Positions 1 to 29,480 are shown, counted from the first letter of the stretch. The stretch: 29,480 nucleotides of DNA from a virus (IMGVR_UViG_2541047692_000014), one strand, 5' to 3'. A program made the numbers and translations. The notes: a model not told the origin generated them from the sequence alone.

Positions 1-1011
1 TTATAACGTCACTCCGCCTTTTAGTGGATTCAGAGCGACGGCATTTTGCAGATAGTCAGGCGCAAGGTGCGCATAGGCCATCGTCTGCTGAATGCTCGCA
101 TGTCCCAGAATCTGTTGCAGTGCGATTATATTGCCCCCATTCATCATGAAATGGCTTGCGAATGTATGCCGCAGGATGTGGGTTGCCTGATTGGGTGGTA
201 TATCAGGTTTCACTCTGCGTAAAATCCCGCAAAATTTCTCATAATCAACTTTGAATAATTTGGCGCTGGCCTCCTCTTTAACTTTTTTCTCCAGTTCCTC
301 AGAAATCGGCACGGTTCGCTTTTTACCGTTTTTGGTTTTCAGGAAGGTAACCCTGCAATTTGTAATCTGTGCTGGTTTTAGCGTGGCAACTTCCGTCCAT
401 CTTCCTCCAGTGCTCAGACATAAAAGCGCGACAAGTAAGTCATCACCAGCCAAAACATTTAACAGTTTTTCGATTTCTGCTTTTTCCAGGAACGTCATTT
501 CAGGGTTGGCCTCCGCCAGTGGCGGCAGTCCGTGAATTGGGTGTTGCCCAGAAAATTCATCCAATTGAATTAATTTTGTGAACATGCCGGATAATCGGTA
601 CATGTCACGGTTTATCGTTGCGGCACTGATACCATCACGTAGTCGCATGGAACGATAATCCATCAAAGCCCTTTTGCTCATCCTGCTCACTGGTATATCA
701 CCTATGCCGCTGATGGTTTTGAGTAGATGATTAAACTCTTTTGTTCCATGCTCGTGGTTTTGCCCGTGATATTTCCACCAGATGTCCAGCAACTCACTCA
801 AAGTCCGGCGGTCTGCTCGCTGGCCTCCCCATTCTTTCTGACTGGCATTGGCGATTGTGTATCGCTCAAATGCTAGTGCTTCAGCTTTTCTTTCGAATTT
901 CCTGCGGATGCGTTTTCCGTCGCGACCGCGAGGTCTAATGTCCACTTCATAGCGACCATCATCGAGCTTCTTAATTGCCATAAGAAAGCCCTCCGGCGCT
1001 GTATTCACCAT
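1..1011 (-). CDS. int: Tyrosine integrase (P2 Int-like), 336 aa
   Basis: Translation has a C-terminal tyrosine recombinase signature (HTFASHFMMNGGNI...LQQILGHASIQQTMAYAHL) and sits next to the repressor at the prophage end. An internal ATG at 981 (MAIKKL...) has a better SD (GGAGG, 8 nt spacing) and may be the true start. Confidence 0.9.
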   Translation of the reverse strand: MVNTAPEGFLMAIKKLDDGRYEVDIRPRGRDGKRIRRKFERKAEALAFERYTIANASQKEWGGQRADRRTLSELLDIWWKYHGQNHEHGTKEFNHLLKTISGIGDIPVSRMSKRALMDYRSMRLRDGISAATINRDMYRLSGMFTKLIQLDEFSGQHPIHGLPPLAEANPEMTFLEKAEIEKLLNVLAGDDLLVALLCLSTGGRWTEVATLKPAQITNCRVTFLKTKNGKKRTVPISEELEKKVKEEASAKLFKVDYEKFCGILRRVKPDIPPNQATHILRHTFASHFMMNGGNIIALQQILGHASIQQTMAYAHLAPDYLQNAVALNPLKGGVTL

Positions 1012-1755: not shown

Positions 1756-1926
1756 ATGAATGAGCCGCGTTGTATTGCTCAGTTACTGCGTAACGAAAGC
1801 CCCAGGGCGATTGACTTCACCATCACCCACGGGAAGGGTCGCAAGGGAATCATTATCCGCACCAAAAAACAGAGTCCGTTAAAAAAGGCTCTGACCTTTC
1901 TGAAAAGCCGGAGGGTCTGGAAATGA
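1756..1926 (+). CDS. Small early protein, P2 orf78-like, 56 aa
   Basis: ORF from the internal ATG at 1756, immediately after the cox stop and overlapping the B start; the position matches P2 orf78. Confidence 0.55.
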   Translation: MNEPRCIAQLLRNESPRAIDFTITHGKGRKGIIIRTKKQSPLKKALTFLKSRRVWK

Positions 1927-2423
1927 CAGTGATGACGCTCAATCTCGTTGAAAAACAGCCAGCAGCTATGCGCCGGATAATTGGTAAGCATCTGGCCGTC
2001 CCTCGCTGGCAGGAGACATGCGATTATTATAATCAGATGATGGAACGCGAACGGCTAACGGTTTGCTTCCATGCGCAGTTAAAACAGCGTCACGCAACGA
2101 TGCGTTTTGAAGAAATGAACGACGTCGAACGTGAACGGCTGGTTTGTGCAATTGATGAACTGCGTGGGGCATTCTCAAAACGCCGTCAGGTCGGTGCAAG
2201 TGAGTATGCATATATTAGCTTTTTAACTGTCAGTCAGCGCCGTACTTTATTTATGCATGCGGGATTGACTGAAAAAGAATTCAACCAGCCATACTGGCGA
2301 ATTAATGAAGAGTCATGTTACTGGCGTGATGCTTTATTCCGTGCGTTACGTGAATTATTCAGTCTGTTTGAGTATGCGCCGACAATTCTGACGTCGGTAA
2401 AACCAGAGCAATATCTGCATTAA
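1923..2423 (+). CDS. B: Replication gene B protein (helicase-loader-like), 166 aa
   Basis: 166-aa ORF at the P2 gene B position, identical in length to P2 B; ATGA start/stop overlap with the upstream ORF. Confidence 0.75.
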   Translation: MTVMTLNLVEKQPAAMRRIIGKHLAVPRWQETCDYYNQMMERERLTVCFHAQLKQRHATMRFEEMNDVERERLVCAIDELRGAFSKRRQVGASEYAYISFLTVSQRRTLFMHAGLTEKEFNQPYWRINEESCYWRDALFRALRELFSLFEYAPTILTSVKPEQYLH

Positions 2424-2444
2424 GTAATTAACCAGAGTTTTTAA

Positions 2445-2480
2445 CGCACTTAATCGTGCGGGGCTTCTTTTTGCCTGGAG
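2445..2480 (+). terminator. Possible weak stem-loop terminator or attenuator after B
   Basis: CGCAC-TTAAT-(C)GTGCG hairpin followed by GGGCTTCTTTTT; the U-tract is not immediately adjacent. Confidence 0.3.
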
Positions 2481-2486
2481 AAAGTC

Positions 2487-2711
2487 ATGCATACAGTTTC
2501 TGAAAATCAGTGCGGTAAATACGCATTACTGCTGCAACAGGCCAGAACCGAAGCACATGCCGACGCTGCGACGCGCTTTTCTTCTCATCTTGACGCCATG
2601 ATTCGCCACATCACAAAGGCGGAGTTATCCCGCGTGGAGATAGTCGAGCTGCTCAGTCAGGAGTCGGAAAAATTTCACAATATCGGATTGTCTCGCGGGG
2701 AGGTGCTTTGA
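2487..2711 (+). CDS. Early-operon hypothetical protein, P2 orf80-like, 74 aa
   Basis: ORF with upstream SD (GGAGAAAGTC-ATG); ATGA overlap with the next ORF; the position matches P2 orf80. Confidence 0.6.
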
Positions 2712-3013
2712 TGTCCTGTTCTCATTCAGTTGTATTACTGAATAACGCCTTAAAAATCGCCGTTATGAAAAATGGCGATTTGTCTCTTATTCAACTTGGT
2801 CTTGATAAAGAAAAACGCGAAATAACTGAATATGTTATCGCGATTTATCAGAATGAATTAAACCTCCTGTCTGATGTGGTCAATTTACTTGTTAAACGCG
2901 CTGTATTCCACAAGCAAATTTCCTCCGTGGATGAACTGACGAAATTAACGACAGAAATCGCCAGCTATTGCGCTGATAAATTTAAGAAGCTGAACGACAA
3001 AAGGAGCTGGTAA
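2708..3013 (+). CDS. Early-operon hypothetical protein, P2 orf81-like, 101 aa
   Basis: ORF translationally coupled to its neighbours (ATGA at 2708-2711, TAATG at 3011-3015). Confidence 0.6.
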
Positions 3014-3510
3014 TGCCGGACAACGTAGATTTTATTCAGGAACAACAGGCTGAATTACTGGAGCGCCAGATTAACGCGGCAAGGGTAAAACATTGCGGTG
3101 TTTCTGCGCTGGTTTGCGAAGAGTGTGACGCGCCAATACCTGCTGCCCGTCGTGCGGCTTATCCATCAGCCACGCGTTGTGTTTCCTGTCAGTCAGTCTT
3201 TGAAGCAAAAAAACAAACATTACCGGAGAATGGCATGAGCATTCGTATTGAAATTGGCGAACGTTATGTCGTTACCAGTGACAGCTTTCAGTTTATTCTC
3301 CACGAGAAAAAGAGAGCGGAAAGCGGTAAAAACGCCGGTCAGGAATGGCTGTCGGTGGTTGGTTATTACCCGAAATTAAGCCAGCTCGTTTCCGGCCTGA
3401 TGCATCACGATATTCTGACCGGAAGCGCAAAGTCTTTTGCTGATTTAAACGCGCAGGTTGAGCAACTCAGCAGGCGTTGTTCAGAGGCTTTTGGCTCATA
3501 TGGCCGTTAA
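3013..3510 (+). CDS. TraR/DksA-family C4 zinc-finger protein (orf82-like) fused in frame to an orf83-like domain, 165 aa; an internal start at 3235 would give a separate 91-aa product
   Basis: N-terminal 70 aa carry a CxxC-N17-CxxC motif (CEECDAPIPAARRAAYPSATRCVSCQ) typical of TraR/DksA zinc fingers. There is no stop before the downstream segment; the in-frame ATG at 3235 has a good SD (GGAG). Confidence 0.55.
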   Translation: MPDNVDFIQEQQAELLERQINAARVKHCGVSALVCEECDAPIPAARRAAYPSATRCVSCQSVFEAKKQTLPENGMSIRIEIGERYVVTSDSFQFILHEKKRAESGKNAGQEWLSVVGYYPKLSQLVSGLMHHDILTGSAKSFADLNAQVEQLSRRCSEAFGSYGR

Positions 3511-5785
3511 AGCCTCCGGGCGTTTTGTCCCTCCGTCAGCATTTGCCGCAGGCACCGGTAAGGCGTTTACCGGTGCTTATGCATGGAACGCGCCACGCGA
3601 GGCCGTCGGGCGCGAAAGACCCCTTACACGTGACGAGATGCGTCAGGTGCAAGGTGTTTTATCCACGATTAACCGCCTGCCTTACTTTTTGCGCTCGCTG
3701 TTTACCTCACGCTATGACTACATCCGGCGCAATAAAAGCCCGGTGCACGGGTTTTATTTCCTCACATCCACTTTTCAGCGTCGTTTATGGCCGCGCATTG
3801 AGCGCGTGAATCAGCGCCATGAAATGAACACCGACGCGTCGTTGCTGTTTCTGACAGAGCGTGACCACTATGCGCGTCTGCCGGGGATGAATGACAAGGA
3901 GCTGAAAAAGTTTGCCGCCCGTATCTCATCGCAGCTTTTCATGATGTATGAGGAACTCTGCGATGCCTGGGTGGATGCGCATGGCGAAAAAGAATCGCTG
4001 TTTACGGATGAGGCGCAGGCGCATCTGTATGGTCATGTTGCTGGCGCTGCACGTGCTTTCAATATTTCCCCGCTTTACTGGAAAAAATACCGTAAAGGAC
4101 AGATGACCACGAGGCAGGCATATTCTGCCATTGCCCGTCTGTTTAACGATGAGTGGTGGACTCATCAGCTTAAAGGCCAGCGTATGCGCTGGCATGAGGC
4201 GTTATTGATAGCTGTCGGGGAGGTCAATAAAGACCGTTCTCCTTATGCCAGTAAACATGCCATTCGTGATGTGCGTGCGCGCCGTCAGGCAAATCTGGAG
4301 TTTCTTAAATCGTGTGACCTTGAAAACAGGGAAACCGGCGAACGCATCGACCTTATCAGTAAGGTGATGGGCAGTATTTCTAATCCTGAAATTCGCCGGA
4401 TGGAGCTGATGAACACCATTGCCGGTATTGAGCGTTACGCCGCCGCAGAGTGTGATGTGGGGATGTTTATCACGCTGACCGCGCCGTCAAAGTATCACCC
4501 GACACGTCAGGTCGGAAAAGGCGAAAGTAAAACCGTCCAGCTTAATCACGGCTGGAATGATGAGGCATTTAATCCGAAGGATGCGCAGCGTTATCTCTGC
4601 CGTATCTGGAGCCTGATGCGCACGGCATTCAAGGATAATGATTTACAGGTCTACGGTTTGCGAGTCGTCGAGCCACACCACGACGGAACGCCGCACTGGC
4701 ATATGATGCTTTTTTGTAATCCACGCCAGCGTAACCAGATTATCGAAATCATGCGTCGCTACGCGCTCAAAGAGGATGGCGACGAAAGAGGAGCTGCGCG
4801 AAACCGTTTTCAGGCAAAACACCTTAACCGGGGCGGTGCTGCGGGATATATCGCGAAATACATTTCAAAAAACATCGACGGCTATGCACTGGATGGTCAG
4901 CTCGATAACGATACCGGCAGGCCGCTGAAAGACACCGCCGCGGCTGTTACCGCATGGGCGTCAACGTGGCGCATCCCGCAATTTAAAACGGTTGGCCTGC
5001 CGACAATGGGGGCTTACCGTGAACTACGCAAATTGCCTCGCGGCGTCAGTATTGCTGATGAGTTTGACGAACGCGTCGAGGCTGCACGCGCTGCCGCAGA
5101 CAGTGGTGATTTTGCGTTGTATATCAGCGCGCAGGGTGGGGCAAATGTTCCGCGCGATTGTCAGACTGTCAGGGTTGCCCGTAGTCCGTCGGATGAAGTT
5201 AACGAGTACGAGGAAGAAGTCGAGAGAGTGGTCGGCATTTACGCGCCGCATCTCGGCGCGCGTCATATTCATATCACCAGAACGACGGACTGGCGCATTG
5301 TGCCGAAAGTTCCGGTCGTTGAGCCTTTGACTTTAAAAAGCGGCATCGCCGCGCCTCGGAGTCCTGTCAATAACTGTGGAAAGCTCACTGGTGGTGATAC
5401 TTCGTTACCGGCTCCCACACCTTCTGAGCACGCCGCCGCAGTGCTTAATCTGGTTGATGACGGTGTTATCGAATGGAATGACCCGGAGGTCGTGAGGGCG
5501 CTCAGGGGCGCATTAAAACACGACCTGAGAACACCAAACCGTCAGCAAAGAAGCGGAAGCCCGTTAAAAGCGCATGAAATAGCGCCATCGGCCAGACTGA
5601 CCCGGTCGGAACGAATGCAAATTACCCGTATCCGCGTTGACCTTGCTCAGAACGGTATCAGGCCGCAGCGATGGGAGCTTGAGGCGCTGGTGCGTGGCGC
5701 GACCGTAAATTATGACGGGAAAAAATTCACGTATCCGGTCGCTGATGAGTGGCCGGGATTCTCAACAGTAATGGAGTGGACATGA
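3500..5785 (+). CDS. A: Replication initiation protein A (rolling-circle nicking endonuclease), 761 aa
   Basis: Long ORF with the rolling-circle initiator motifs HWHMMLF (HUH-type metal site) and YIAKYISKNIDGY (catalytic tyrosines). Start placed at the ATG at 3500 (MAVKASGRF...), which gives the P2 gpA length; the ORF-track start at 3458 is an upstream extension overlapping orf83. Confidence 0.92.
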   Translation: MAVKASGRFVPPSAFAAGTGKAFTGAYAWNAPREAVGRERPLTRDEMRQVQGVLSTINRLPYFLRSLFTSRYDYIRRNKSPVHGFYFLTSTFQRRLWPRIERVNQRHEMNTDASLLFLTERDHYARLPGMNDKELKKFAARISSQLFMMYEELCDAWVDAHGEKESLFTDEAQAHLYGHVAGAARAFNISPLYWKKYRKGQMTTRQAYSAIARLFNDEWWTHQLKGQRMRWHEALLIAVGEVNKDRSPYASKHAIRDVRARRQANLEFLKSCDLENRETGERIDLISKVMGSISNPEIRRMELMNTIAGIERYAAAECDVGMFITLTAPSKYHPTRQVGKGESKTVQLNHGWNDEAFNPKDAQRYLCRIWSLMRTAFKDNDLQVYGLRVVEPHHDGTPHWHMMLFCNPRQRNQIIEIMRRYALKEDGDERGAARNRFQAKHLNRGGAAGYIAKYISKNIDGYALDGQLDNDTGRPLKDTAAAVTAWASTWRIPQFKTVGLPTMGAYRELRKLPRGVSIADEFDERVEAARAAADSGDFALYISAQGGANVPRDCQTVRVARSPSDEVNEYEEEVERVVGIYAPHLGARHIHITRTTDWRIVPKVPVVEPLTLKSGIAAPRSPVNNCGKLTGGDTSLPAPTPSEHAAAVLNLVDDGVIEWNDPEVVRALRGALKHDLRTPNRQQRSGSPLKAHEIAPSARLTRSERMQITRIRVDLAQNGIRPQRWELEALVRGATVNYDGKKFTYPVADEWPGFSTVMEWT

Positions 5786-6237
5786 TGGCAAAAATTCACG
5801 AGGTAAAGCTGCACGCAAAATATTTTGACCTTGTGCTGGAAGGAAAGAAACGCGCAGAGTTTCGGAAAAATGACCGTAATTATGAGCGCGGGGACACGTT
5901 GATTTTGCATGAATGGGCGCAGGGTGTGTATACGGGGCGAAAGGTTGAAGCCCGGATAACAGATGTTACTGACCTGTCAGACTGGCTGGAAGATTATGTC
6001 TTGCTAAGTATTGAGCTGCTTAATACAGGCGCATATGAGATTGTGAACTGGAAAGAACTTAGTGAGCGTGGTCTGGTATTCAGAATTAATCATGAAATTA
6101 TGCATCAGCTCGGCCTTTCTGTTATGTATGCACCAGAGACGGGGATGTCTGGCGGGGCAATGGTTGCCACGGATGGAGCATGGAACTATTCAGATGAACA
6201 GATTGAGCGTGCAAAGCAAAACGGGTGGCTTGGATAA
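5782..6237 (+). CDS. ASCH/DUF3850-like domain protein with C-terminal extension, 151 aa
   Basis: ATGA overlap with the gene A stop; N-terminal segment (KIHEVKLHAKYFDLVLEGKKRAEFRKNDRNYERGDTLILHEW) resembles ASCH/PUA-fold proteins. The domain call is from memory and unverified. Confidence 0.55.
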   Translation: MMAKIHEVKLHAKYFDLVLEGKKRAEFRKNDRNYERGDTLILHEWAQGVYTGRKVEARITDVTDLSDWLEDYVLLSIELLNTGAYEIVNWKELSERGLVFRINHEIMHQLGLSVMYAPETGMSGGAMVATDGAWNYSDEQIERAKQNGWLG

Positions 6238-6443
6238 TGCACAGAATACCGGGCGAGATACCGCAACATAACACTAAAAATATCAAGCTGATGGCTATTG
6301 TTCACCGTCTACAGCAGATTATGGTCAACGAAAATCTGACGCCTGACGAGCTGGTCGGGTGTGCCGAAATAGTCCGGGATAATTACGGGCGGCTTAATTA
6401 TATCCGTCAGTCCAGAGTTGCTCCACCGCCACGCAGACTATAG
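6237..6443 (+). CDS. Small hypothetical protein, 68 aa
   Basis: ORF translationally coupled to the upstream gene (TAATG at 6235-6239). No recognisable motif. Confidence 0.45.
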   Translation: MHRIPGEIPQHNTKNIKLMAIVHRLQQIMVNENLTPDELVGCAEIVRDNYGRLNYIRQSRVAPPPRRL

Positions 6444-6658
6444 AAAACGCCGTCAGTCTTGAAACTTGTTTTCAGGGCTGGCGGGGTTGAACAACGAGCA
6501 TCGCGAGGCGTTAGTGGTATTGGAACCAATGAGAAAACAAAAAACTCAACGCCTCCCCTCATGTTTGATGGTATGGTCTTGTTTTTAGGTAATGAAGCTT
6601 TATTCGGGTGACGTGTCTAATATAGCTTTCTGCATGACGTTAGAATGATGATGAGATC

Positions 6659-7261
6659 ATGTTATTAATGAATGAGAAAAAAAGACAAAAATATCTAAAG
6701 ATAATGTTTGAATGTCAAAAGCGACTTGAAACACTTCATGCTTTATCATCTGGAAGGATTGATGGCATTTATTTTCAAGTGTTAATTGAAATGGAGGCGT
6801 TGCAGCTTAGGAAGCTACTAGAGCTCATTGCATTTTCATCTCTAATTTCACATGAAAAAGCATACGAGAAGGTTACAAAGAAGATTGATGGTGTATGGAA
6901 GGCGAAGAATATATTTAAAGAGTTGGAAAAGATAAACCCTAACTTTTATCCAGTACCAATATCAGGAGTAACCAAAACGGGCTGGACGAAACTAACGGGA
7001 GGTTTTTTGACGAAAAAACAGTTTATCAAGCTATATGATGAATGCTCAAAACATATTCACGTAAGGAACCCATATCGGGTTAGGGAAAACTCGCTGGGGT
7101 TTCATAAAAAAGTTCCAGAGTATTTATCAAGAATTGAAACTCTACTGTTAAAGCACATTGTTTCTCTTGCCGGGAATGAAGAACTTCTTCTTGTAGATGT
7201 GCCTCATTATGAAGACTCTGTAACAGCTATAAAAATGAGCCACCTCGTTAAAATGGGGTGA
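6659..7261 (+). CDS. Hypothetical protein of unknown function, 200 aa, AT-rich cargo at the P2 tin/old hotspot; candidate anti-phage defence or superinfection-exclusion gene
   Basis: Uninterrupted 200-codon ORF (alternative start at 6668) in a markedly AT-rich block, unlike the flanking phage core. It follows a 215-bp non-coding spacer and is followed by a stem-loop plus T-run. It sits between the replication module and cos, where P2 carries tin/old. Confidence 0.6.
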   Translation: MLLMNEKKRQKYLKIMFECQKRLETLHALSSGRIDGIYFQVLIEMEALQLRKLLELIAFSSLISHEKAYEKVTKKIDGVWKAKNIFKELEKINPNFYPVPISGVTKTGWTKLTGGFLTKKQFIKLYDECSKHIHVRNPYRVRENSLGFHKKVPEYLSRIETLLLKHIVSLAGNEELLLVDVPHYEDSVTAIKMSHLVKMG

Positions 7262-7296
7262 AAAATAAGCAATAAATAGTCGATTCTAGTGAACGG

Positions 7297-7320
7297 TCGG
7301 CTATTTTTAGCCGGATTTTT
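7297..7320 (+). terminator. Putative intrinsic terminator downstream of the 200-aa cargo ORF
   Basis: Hairpin CGGCTA-TTTT-TAGCCG followed by GATTTTTAT. Confidence 0.4.
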
Positions 7321-7479
7321 ATACTGTTTCCCCTTAATTACAGTCGTTTCTATTCATGCATGTGCTATTGCATCGAATTGCATGCGTTTTCATCCCCTGT
7401 TGCTTATGAGCGTTGTCAGTGCTGGCGCATTCTCGGTATGTTCATGCAACTGCATCAAAATCGCCCCATGAAGCGGGCG

Positions 7480-7498
7480 GGCGAGGCGGGGAAAGCAC
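7480..7498. other. cos: cos site (19-nt cohesive end GGCGAGGCGGGGAAAGCAC)
   Basis: Exact string GGCGAGGCGGGGAAAGCAC is present at 7480-7498, between the cargo region and the portal gene where P2 cos is expected. The cohesive-end sequence is recalled from the P2/186 literature. Confidence 0.65.
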
Positions 7499-7640
7499 TG
7501 CGCGCTGGCGGTGGTGCTGATTTTATTTTTTCAGCGTCTGAGCGCGTCGTGATGGCGTTTAGATTGTGCGCCGGGGCGTTGGTGTGTCTGCGGGGTGTTT
7601 TGTGCGGTGGTGAGCGTGTGAGGGAGTGATGACGGGGTAT

Positions 7641-7662
7641 AAAAAAGCCGCCCGCAGGCGGC
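7641..7662 (-). terminator. Rho-independent terminator downstream of portal gene Q
   Basis: On the minus strand: GCCGCC-TGCG-GGCGGC hairpin followed by TTTTTT, immediately 3' of the Q stop codon (7668). Confidence 0.7.
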
Positions 7663-7667
7663 GATGT

Positions 7668-8702
7668 TCAGCCGTTGTCAGTGTCCAGTGAGTAGTTTTT
7701 AAAGCGGATGACCTCCTGACCAAGCCAGCCGTTTATCTCGCGGATCCTGTCCTGTAGCGGGATAAGCTCATTGCGGACAAAGACCTTTGCCACTTTCTCA
7801 ATATCTCCCAGTGACCCGACGTTCTCCGGCTTGCCGCCCATCAACTGAAAGGGGATGCGGTGCGCGTCCAGCAGGTCTGCGGCACTGGCTTTTTTGATAT
7901 TAAAAAAATCGTCCTTCGTTGCCACTTCACTGAGCGGGATAATTTTAATGCCGTCAGCTTTCCCCTGCGGGGCATAGAGAAACAGATTTTTAAAGTTGTT
8001 GCGGCCTTTCGACTTAACCATGTTTTCGCGAAGCATTTCGATATCGTTGCGATCCTGCACGGCATCGGTGACGTACATGATGTATCCGGCATGTGCGCCA
8101 TTTTCGTAATACTTGCGGCGGAACAGCGTAGCTGATTCATTCAGCCAGGCAGAGTTAAGGGCGCTGAGATATTCCGGCAGGCCGTACAGCTCCTGATTAA
8201 TATCCGGCTCCAGCAGGTGAAACACGGAGCCGGGCGCGAAAGGTGTCGGTTCGTTGAAGGACGGCACCCACCAGTAAACATCCTCCTCCACGCCACGGCG
8301 GGTATATTTGGCCGGTGAGGTTTCCAGTCTGATGACCTTACCGGTGGTGCTGTATCGCTTTTCCAGAAACGCATTACCGAACACCAGAAAATCCAGCACA
8401 AAGCGGCTGAAATCCTGCTGGGAAAGCCACGGATGCGGGATAAACGTTGAAGCCAGAATATTACGTTTGACGTAAATCGGTGAGCTGTGATGTACGGCAG
8501 CACGCAGGCTTTTTGCCAGACCGGTAAAGCTGACCGGTGGCTCATACCATCTGCCGTTACTGATGCACTCGACGTAATCCAGAATGTCACGGCGGTCGAG
8601 TACCGGCACCGGCTCACCAAAGGTGAATGCCTCTATTTTCGGGGCGCTGGCGGTCATTGTTTTCACCGCTGGCTGCGGTGTTTTCCCTTTTTTCTTGCTC
8701 AT
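7668..8702 (-). CDS. Q: Portal protein, 344 aa
   Basis: 344-aa ORF, the P2 gpQ length, adjacent to and overlapping (ATGA) the terminase large subunit gene and divergent from the capsid operon. Confidence 0.9.
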   Translation of the reverse strand: MSKKKGKTPQPAVKTMTASAPKIEAFTFGEPVPVLDRRDILDYVECISNGRWYEPPVSFTGLAKSLRAAVHHSSPIYVKRNILASTFIPHPWLSQQDFSRFVLDFLVFGNAFLEKRYSTTGKVIRLETSPAKYTRRGVEEDVYWWVPSFNEPTPFAPGSVFHLLEPDINQELYGLPEYLSALNSAWLNESATLFRRKYYENGAHAGYIMYVTDAVQDRNDIEMLRENMVKSKGRNNFKNLFLYAPQGKADGIKIIPLSEVATKDDFFNIKKASAADLLDAHRIPFQLMGGKPENVGSLGDIEKVAKVFVRNELIPLQDRIREINGWLGQEVIRFKNYSLDTDNG

Positions 8703-28398: not shown

Positions 28399-28479
28399 TG
28401 TTTTTATTTTATCTATTTGTTTTATAAGGATAAATTAACTAAAATGGCACCATCAACAAAACCGGAAGAGGTGCTCGCG

Positions 28480-28698
28480 ATGTTTCATTGTCCTTTATGC
28501 CAGCATGCCGCACATGCGCGTACAAGTCGCTATATCACTGACACGACAAAAGAGCGTTATCACCAGTGTCAGAACGTGAATTGCAGCGCCACGTTCATCA
28601 CTTATGAGTCGGTACAGCGATACATTGTGAAGCCGGGAGAAGTCCACGCCGTAAGGCCGCACCCGTTGCCGTCAGGGCAGCAAATTATGTGGATGTAA
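28480..28698 (+). CDS. ogr: Late gene transcriptional activator Ogr (zinc-finger protein), 72 aa
   Basis: Start at the ATG at 28480 (MFHCPLCQHAAHARTSRY...ERYHQCQNVNCSATF) gives 72 aa with a CxxC-N22-CxxxxC zinc-binding motif characteristic of Ogr/Delta activators. It is the last phage gene before the prophage end. Confidence 0.9.
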   Translation: MFHCPLCQHAAHARTSRYITDTTKERYHQCQNVNCSATFITYESVQRYIVKPGEVHAVRPHPLPSGQQIMWM

Positions 28699-28838: not shown

Positions 28839-29480
28839 ATGGAAAAAGTTATAATTGAGCTTGATAATCGTTGGGAGTTAGCTGATTTCGCGGTCTTAAC
28901 GAAAGAGTATTTGCAGCTATATGGTTTTTTTTATGGCCTAAAAGGAGGATCAAGAGGATATTCAACAATGCCTTGGGAGGGTGGGCACAGTGTGGTGAAC
29001 TTTTTTAGAGGGGCTTACAGTGCGACTCCACCAGATTTACGTCCTGTAGTGAAAAAAATTCAGTATGCCTCTCCTGGCTTTATTGAATTGTCTGCTCTTA
29101 TTGATATCTCTTGGCAGATTGCTGAGTTAGTTACTGCTGTTGGTGGAAGTATTCTGGCTGCCAACAAAGTTTACGATCAGGTGATGCGTACATATCGACA
29201 AAGAGAATGGGCAAAGTTGAAATCAGAGAAGCTGCGTATACAGAATCAAATTAAAGAGATTGAACTTGTTTCTGACGCAGTTAAATCACTTGAATCTGTG
29301 ATGGCACTTAGTGAAGAACAACGTAAAAACTTGGTTCAACTATCGGGGGCAGATGAACTGGTTCAGTTAAAGATACTTTTGGCTGTTTACCGACGGTTAT
29401 CTCCTCTTGTTGAGTTGCAAAACAGCGGGAAAGCTAATTTTTCTGCTGGGAAAAATAAAAATTTAAAAGCGTCCGATTAA
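28839..29480 (+). CDS. Hypothetical protein, 213 aa, AT-rich, with predicted coiled-coil C-terminal half; immediately beyond the ogr terminator (prophage-end cargo or flanking host gene)
   Basis: Complete ORF with SD (GGTGGAAA-ATG) and a stop at the last base of the window; composition clearly more AT-rich than the phage late genes. No recognisable catalytic motif. Confidence 0.55.
   Translation: MEKVIIELDNRWELADFAVLTKEYLQLYGFFYGLKGGSRGYSTMPWEGGHSVVNFFRGAYSATPPDLRPVVKKIQYASPGFIELSALIDISWQIAELVTAVGGSILAANKVYDQVMRTYRQREWAKLKSEKLRIQNQIKEIELVSDAVKSLESVMALSEEQRKNLVQLSGADELVQLKILLAVYRRLSPLVELQNSGKANFSAGKNKNLKASD

Follow-up and report, generated by a model that had tools for sequence, protein, structure and literature searches.

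IMGVR_UViG_2541047692_000014, a viral sequence of 29,480 nucleotides (nt) that is referred to here, over its whole ~29.5-kb length, as the window, is a P2-like prophage in which a single AT-rich gene (positions 6668 to 7261, plus strand) occupies the slot that is held by tin and old in P2. The gene encodes a protein of 197 amino acids (aa) that is identical to RefSeq WP_021519103 and is a member of PHROG 13799. It is firmly shown to be a horizontally acquired, one-gene cargo (a "moron") of the cos-proximal gpA-gpQ hotspot.

Genes in this part of the prophage follow the order integrase, replication gene A (GPA), DUF3850/ASCH, a small open reading frame (ORF), cargo, cos, and portal gene Q. The cargo gene is bounded on one side by GPA (3458 to 5785, plus strand; Pfam Phage_GPA, 6.5e-123) and on the other by portal gene Q (7668 to 8702, minus strand; Pfam Phage_portal; "phage portal protein" in RefSeq), with cos adjoining. 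This arrangement agrees with a first-pass annotation, made from the sequence alone, that had placed the gene in the P2 tin/old slot between the replication module (gene A and two small ORFs) and cos. The cohesive-end sequence, the 19-nt GGCGAGGCGGGGAAAGCAC (7480 to 7498, plus strand), has a single exact match in the window (chance expectation, 0) and does not differ from cosR as annotated in P2 (NC_001895).

The cargo ORF has a GC content of 0.357 and a third-position content (GC3) of 0.335, as opposed to 0.536 for the rest of the window, and no other stretch of 603 nt in the entire 29.5 kb is as low in GC. The first-pass annotation had held the gene to be more AT-rich than the phage core and to have been acquired horizontally, and both claims are supported. 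It had also read the ORF as 6659 to 7261 (plus strand, 200 aa). This frame is present, with the ATG at 6659 adding three codons, but the second ATG, at 6668, is most likely the true start: RefSeq annotates WP_021519103 from this position, the PHROG profile alignment spans residues 4 to 200 of the 200-aa version, and nucleotide similarity to the copies in Enterobacter and Salmonella opens exactly there and closes at the stop codon.

The slot is variable in its contents. The left flank occurs in 198 complete Escherichia coli genomes, whereas the full cargo gene occurs in only 20 of the 5,426 complete genomes. Behind the same left flank, other P2-like prophages of E. coli carry four different cargoes: a set of cytosine methyltransferase, hypothetical protein, and ParB-N protein; a second set of ParB-N protein, hypothetical protein, and adenine methylase; a DUF2188 gene; and an unrelated 312-aa protein. 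The gene follows immediately on the replication module and shares its strand, which could suggest a core or replication-associated P2 gene, or else a spurious ORF, but this distribution refutes both. The gene is far from universal among P2-like phages and is absent from P2 itself, and conservation of the protein across phyla and its confident predicted fold also leave such an explanation virtually no probability.

The gpA-gpQ locus is the P2 defense hotspot described by Rousset et al. (2022), who recorded 1,650 arrangements in 18,150 loci (PMC9122126). WP_021519103 itself is listed in their Table S5A, in the arrangement "DUF3850/ASCH + hypothetical (+ hypothetical)," and the same table pairs the two flanking proteins with another third gene (PMC9122126). 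The gene had been proposed at first pass as an undescribed system; in fact, the hotspot is published and the exact protein is already cataloged there, although a literature search for WP_021519103 and phrog_13799 found no paper that mentions either. With the hotspot already known, interest rests on the gene family.

Junctions and flanking elements

The segment exchanged at this locus is ~0.85 to 0.93 kb in length and contains one gene only, which upholds the earlier description of a single-gene unit. The 215-nt AT-rich spacer that had been assigned to the cargo stands only in part: the gap is real, but positions 6444 to 6516 belong to a conserved P2-like element, and only 6517 to 6667 (plus strand) is a cargo-specific, AT-rich upstream spacer that is not common to other P2-like phages. 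In an alignment of five prophages, identity extends through ...GAGGCGTTAG at ~6514, beyond which the sequences diverge fully. The right junction zone, where the sequence again resembles that of other P2-like phages, is at 7369 to 7445; in a megablast search with 7262 to 7700, these phages match from query positions 108 to 184 on.

The left anchor of the variable region is an RNA stem-loop (6446 to 6488, plus strand) situated just 3' of the stop codon of the small ORF. The 90-nt stretch that contains it (6436 to 6525) has a minimum free energy (MFE) of -31.7 kcal/mol (z = -3.0), and none of 200 shuffled sequences was as stable. The element is common to the 198 E. coli genomes and to 15 phage records, including P2 and Wphi. 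It has no U-run and is therefore not a canonical intrinsic terminator. As the left recombination boundary of the hotspot, it is a candidate operon-end stabilizer, attenuator, or recombination anchor. An attC-like identity for the left-junction element was ruled out, since shuffled sequences are just as stable when it is folded as single-stranded DNA (z = -0.6), whereas it forms a strong hairpin as RNA. An Rfam scan of 6200 to 7700 gave no match.

Downstream of the gene, there is a terminator-like hairpin (7297 to 7322 with its T-run, plus strand), in which a 7-bp stem with four GC pairs (hairpin and T-run, 7297 to 7314) is followed by ATTTTTAT. The terminator predicted at this site at first pass is thus recognizable, but its stability is modest (MFE of -14.4 kcal/mol and z = -1.9 for the 69-nt stretch from 7262 to 7330). 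The spacer at 6517 to 6667 is absent from the copies in Enterobacter and Salmonella, and no promoter was found to travel with the gene. By eye, the hexamer TAGAAT at 6641 to 6646 could be a -10-like element.

Two of the genes to the left belong to the flank and not to the cargo. The DUF3850/ASCH gene (5749 to 6237, plus strand; Pfam DUF3850, 3.5e-18, and ASCH, 5.3e-11), whose start in RefSeq is ~39 nt more internal, is the counterpart of P2 orf91, the product of which carries a DUF3850 annotation, and it also occurs beside other cargoes in other E. coli prophages. The small conserved ORF (6225 to 6443, plus strand; 68 to 72 aa; PHROG 11386, function unassigned) likewise accompanies different cargoes in other E. 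coli prophages. The integrase gene (1 to 1011, minus strand) marks the left end of the prophage.

A large family on several capture platforms

The gene had been labeled an orphan, which is incorrect: its product matches PHROG 13799, a family of unassigned function, with an E value of 1.8e-109 and has thousands of relatives. A word-indexed search recovered 44 clusters (50%-identity representatives), and an exhaustive profile search recovered 2,262 at an E value of ≤1e-3, of which 1,494 were at ≤1e-10. The protein is strongly conserved, and members are spread across several phyla, including those from Enterobacter, Salmonella, Vibrio, Shewanella, Marinobacter, Halomonas, Pseudomonas, Undibacterium, Nitrosomonas, Thiobacillus, Sulfuricurvum, Bacteroidota, Acidobacteriota, and Dehalococcoidia, with every named member annotated as "hypothetical." Conservation was assessed in an alignment of 41 close relatives and, for the broad family, in one of 150 representatives; related loci (designated by L numbers) were gathered with the closer alignment. 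Neither the 150 representatives, which are diverse, nor 10 longer relatives of the fusion type gave any consistent match in a Pfam scan.

New here are the homologues that occupy the corresponding slots of P2- and 186-like prophages in Enterobacter and Salmonella and those that form single-gene integron cassettes. In P2-like prophages, the Enterobacter homologue (76% identity) lies between GPA, which it immediately follows, and the portal gene, as the sole cargo in L037, L039, and L040 and with a DUF2188 gene alongside in L038. In another Enterobacter prophage (L036, 8258 to 9978), an AbiLi/AbiLii-like pair (PADLOC AbiLi, 1.4e-25; OLD-like TOPRIM) sits beside the family gene, from which it appears that two independent cargoes can share the slot. 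In 186-like prophages, the Salmonella homologue (72% identity) occupies this interval as well, preceded by DinI and a 243-aa gene without an assigned function. In these prophages (L031 to L035, 5663 to 8044), the family gene is followed by a homologue of the small ORF at 6225 to 6443, and the insertion point therefore differs from that in E. coli. An identical gene is carried by Yersinia phage vB_YpM_50, which has been isolated and is viable.

Other homologues, ~46 to 52% identical to the window protein, are integron cassettes. In three strains of Vibrio cholerae, a 196-aa homologue forms a 737- to 738-nt unit between two V. cholerae repeats (VCRs), located at 5847 to 5985 and 6584 to 6722 in L053, with the corresponding VCR-bounded cassette of L052 at 5861 to 6738. 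The neighboring cassettes differ in each of the three strains, and the arrays hold acetyltransferase, DUF645, ParE/Phd, and RES-Xre cassettes. The homologues of Marinobacter sp. BW6 (46%; L021, 9933 to 10646) and Halopseudomonas salina (50%; L015, 2687 to 3425) are likewise situated between two attC sites (...TAAC ... GCGTTA...), and attC-like hairpins, as called with a relaxed heuristic, adjoin the gene at six additional loci. The stop codon lies within the detected attC inverse core, GTTTAAC (GTT TAA C), at no fewer than four loci (L010, L015, L016, and L019), and the ...V* ending that such an embedded stop would produce is common to many other relatives. The window copy is not itself a cassette, having nothing attC-like at its flanks and only the short terminator-like hairpin.

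Beyond prophage hotspots and integrons, family members lie within or beside the tail module in two siphovirus-type viral contigs, and distant members are carried by a 6.6-kb MobQ plasmid of Paracoccus and by a Halomonas megaplasmid. The former, pPspOM7 of Paracoccus sanguinis (L056; 29% identity; 1708 to 2322), has few other genes, among them a RelE/ParE toxin-antitoxin pair. When the family was considered as part of a type II toxin-antitoxin system, no conserved partner was found, and the upstream neighbors in Salmonella, Halomonas, and Pseudomonas are mutually unrelated. At several loci, the family gene is the sole cargo or the sole cassette ORF. Because it is carried singly on P2/186 hotspots, integrons, phages, and plasmids without a conserved partner, the family acts as a mobile module that consists of one gene, is self-sufficient, and uses at least four capture platforms. 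The IS30-like element ISApl1, in the E. coli isolate ApSLC23 (L055, NZ_CM196105; 3216 to 4629), interrupts the gene at about window position 7012 in a prophage that is otherwise identical, a natural knockout indicating that the gene is dispensable.

The distribution of carriers also bears on whether the protein could act in counterdefense, as an anti-immunity factor deployed against host defenses upon infection or induction. Phage accessory slots can hold such genes, relatives occur in the tail modules of other phages, and the cargo gene, unlike tin and old in P2, lies on the strand of the early/replication operon, such that its expression by lytic read-through is conceivable. However, anti-restriction-modification or anti-CRISPR genes are rare in P2 (28 of 1,511 elements; PMC13586616), a strong and conserved stem-loop separates the cargo gene from the upstream operon, and many family members are chromosomal integron cassettes or solitary chromosomal genes, settings in which an anti-defense function makes little sense. 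A counterdefense role is therefore improbable.

Predicted fold and candidate function

The cargo gene product, of ~197 aa, is predicted to be soluble. Neither its sequence nor its predicted secondary structure shows a signal peptide or a transmembrane segment. The AlphaFold2 (AF2) model, built on the 41-sequence alignment, is confident (pLDDT, 86.2; pTM, 0.86) and has as its core a four-helix bundle of long helices (residues 6 to 30, 39 to 62, 119 to 133, and 145 to 164). Between the second and third long helices is an insert composed of two helices (66 to 76 and 82 to 92) and a hairpin (99 to 111), and three strands follow at the C terminus; with the hairpin, there are five predicted strands, which may form one small sheet.

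Eighteen residues are conserved in at least 90% of the 150 representatives (Y12, R22, E44, R51, L54, E55, A58, F96, Y97, P98, P100, L117, H134, N137, P138, L162, L163, and H166), and Q49, K52, N65, Y69, W80, N93-P94, T118, Y126, C129, and W155 are also conserved family-wide. As read from helix boundaries and not from model coordinates, E44 and H134-x2-N137 would share one end of the bundle, that of the active site in HEPN domains, with H166 at the opposite end.

It had been speculated at first pass that the protein is a HEPN-like RNase with an R-x6-H motif (RENSLGFH), that is, a canonical HEPN enzyme acting through an R142-x6-H149 dyad. Several features are consistent with this mechanism: H149 falls in the opening turn of the final core helix, the position of the catalytic histidine in HEPN domains, it is retained in 37 of the 41 close relatives, and HEPN toxins (HepT/HEPN; PDB 5yep, 8xdj, 7bxo, and 7ae6) recur among the structural matches, all of which are below significance. 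The string is present in the window protein, but it is not conserved. R142 occurs in only 4 of the 41 close relatives, most of which have glycine at this position (serine in the Salmonella homologue), and among the 150 representatives, E, L, K, or R stands in place of H149. An Rx4-6H motif is found in this segment in only 9 of the 41 close relatives and 5 of the 150 representatives, and neither of the conserved arginines, R22 and R51, is followed by a conserved histidine at the required spacing (5 to 7 residues downstream). Moreover, no HEPN profile (Pfam HEPN, AbiU2, AbiV, RiboL-PSP, MAE_28990, and others) matched the cargo protein at an E value of ≤1 or any of the 150 representatives at ≤0.05. 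The canonical dyad is thus largely refuted by conservation, and we regard this mechanism as very improbable.

The role that we favor, albeit tentatively, is one in lysogenic conversion, through either phage exclusion or abortive infection, for which the gene is a candidate because it is a transferable one-gene unit residing on platforms that stockpile anti-phage genes. The gpA-gpQ locus is a validated defense hotspot, in which old-tin and three of the eight additional P2 systems assayed by Rousset et al. (2022) were active (PMC9122126). Known defense systems are present in 49% of P2 elements, or 81% when putative ones are counted (PMC13586616), and defense systems are enriched 2.2-fold in integron cassettes, with 18% of the assayed V. 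cholerae cassettes being anti-phage (bioRxiv 10.1101/2024.07.02.601686). In such a role, the cargo protein would guard the lysogen, and with it the prophage, against other phages. More speculatively, the effector would be the helical bundle itself, with its four long helices, its insert between core helices 2 and 3, its small C-terminal sheet, and a topology resembling that of HEPN domains. The probable functional site would comprise R22, the helix 2 residues E44, R51, and E55, and, where core helix 3 ends, H134-x2-N137-P138, and it would be situated at the bundle end that bears Rx4-6H in HEPN RNases. Lacking Rx4-6H, the protein, if a nuclease, would have a noncanonical site. An equally possible mechanism is that it would bind and poison a phage protein, as does Tin.

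Several observations weigh against an anti-phage role. The P2 hotspot also houses nondefense genes, including partition systems and the cdt toxin (PMC9122126), and most integron cassettes are not defense genes. WP_021519103 is apparently not among the systems assayed by Rousset et al. (2022) (PMC9122126). Distant chromosomal relatives are solitary and lie amid ordinary metabolic genes, with no recognizable defense island. The cargo protein matched no family in Pfam (E ≤ 1), NCBIfam, or BFVD, no PDB sequence in profile searches with either the close or the broad alignment, and none of the families in PADLOC-DB v2.0.0 at an E value of ≤1; its relatives from V. cholerae (P0321) and Undibacterium (P0197) matched none of the latter at ≤0.01. 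These searches accord with the initial report of no nuclease, ATPase, or helix-turn-helix (HTH) motif, no such family having been matched in Pfam or PADLOC. To these points can be added the scarcity of Rx4-6H noted above and a consensus scan that found no sigma-70 match on the plus strand upstream of the gene, such that expression in the lysogen is only putative.

Some of the same observations would fit a mobile accessory gene with no antiviral function, either a host stress or fitness factor or a selfish or toxic element that spreads on any capture platform. Nondefense cargoes are numerous at both the P2 hotspot and integrons, the neighborhoods of distant relatives are ordinary, the protein resembles no PADLOC defense model, and the ISApl1-disrupted copy indicates that loss of the gene is tolerated. 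Nevertheless, we consider a nonantiviral role rather unlikely, as the family gene recurs in the exact slot of the P2 exclusion genes, sometimes beside an AbiL-like system, its product shows neither a signal peptide nor a transmembrane segment and matches no Pfam domain of metabolism or regulation, and no conserved neighbors place it in a pathway.

Extending the anti-phage role to the whole family is a possible but bolder proposal: these proteins may constitute a new and widespread family of stand-alone anti-phage proteins with a HEPN-like topology and a noncanonical site (E44/R51/E55 ... H134-x2-N137), shuttled among integrons, P2/186 hotspots, small plasmids, and phages across phyla. The family has more than 2,000 clusters, no annotation, and a confident fold without a significant structural neighbor. 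Two of its at least four carrier platforms, the P2 hotspots and the chromosomal integrons, are recognized reservoirs of anti-phage genes, which sets it apart from a typical hypothetical protein of the kind cataloged by the hundreds at this locus. The cargo gene is small and partner free and is present in both the culturable phage vB_YpM_50 and E. coli. Were it antiviral, it would represent a new minimal defense protein and a concrete case of gene flow between integrons and the hotspots of temperate phages.

Other features and comparison with known systems

At the right end of the prophage, a second low-GC patch (~0.39 to 0.41) contains a 213-aa ORF (28839 to 29480, plus strand) situated just after ogr (28417 to 28698). 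It matches PADLOC PD-T4-10_B (1.3e-34), with only the C-terminal part of the profile covered, and has no Pfam match; it may be a second defense cargo that is possibly truncated or whose partner lies beyond the end of the window. In E. coli O68:H12 97.3 (L048), a group II intron reverse transcriptase/maturase (ltrA; 1786 to 3273) is present within or beside the P2-like gene A region of a prophage whose hotspot holds DUF2188 only.

Among known systems, tin/old of P2 occupies the same slot, between A/orf91 and cos, and is likewise a low-GC, nonessential cargo that is likely of benefit to the lysogen. It differs in consisting of two genes on the opposite strand, whereas the window cargo is one gene. 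The cargo protein shows no similarity to Tin (BLASTP, E = 42) and has no Pfam match to the ATPase (AAA) or TOPRIM domains of OLD. The DUF4238 protein of Rousset et al. (2022) is also a one-gene gpA-gpQ cargo; it was validated in that study, whereas the window gene is a candidate only, and the window protein matches neither DUF4238 nor any other Pfam or PADLOC family. With the HepT/HEPN toxins of MNT-HEPN modules, the window protein may share the placement of conserved polar residues at the helix 3-helix 4 end of the bundle, but it lacks Rx4-6H, a HEPN profile match, and a neighboring MNT antitoxin, and it would differ further by an extra five-strand sheet and a helical insert.

A further comparison is with small one-gene cassettes that protect against phages and encode a HEPN-like helical domain, namely, Esos, from the chromosomal integron (SCI) of V. 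cholerae N16961, and the AbiU2-HEPN cassette HNPBCG_15845. The Pfam family HEPN_AbiU2 matched neither the cargo protein nor the representatives, and the V. cholerae member of the family occurs on only 32 contigs, making it unlikely to be a cassette of the pandemic-lineage strain N16961. Nonetheless, homologues of the window gene are also one-gene cassettes in Vibrio, and in this respect they resemble the AbiU2-HEPN cassette and, by its description, Esos.

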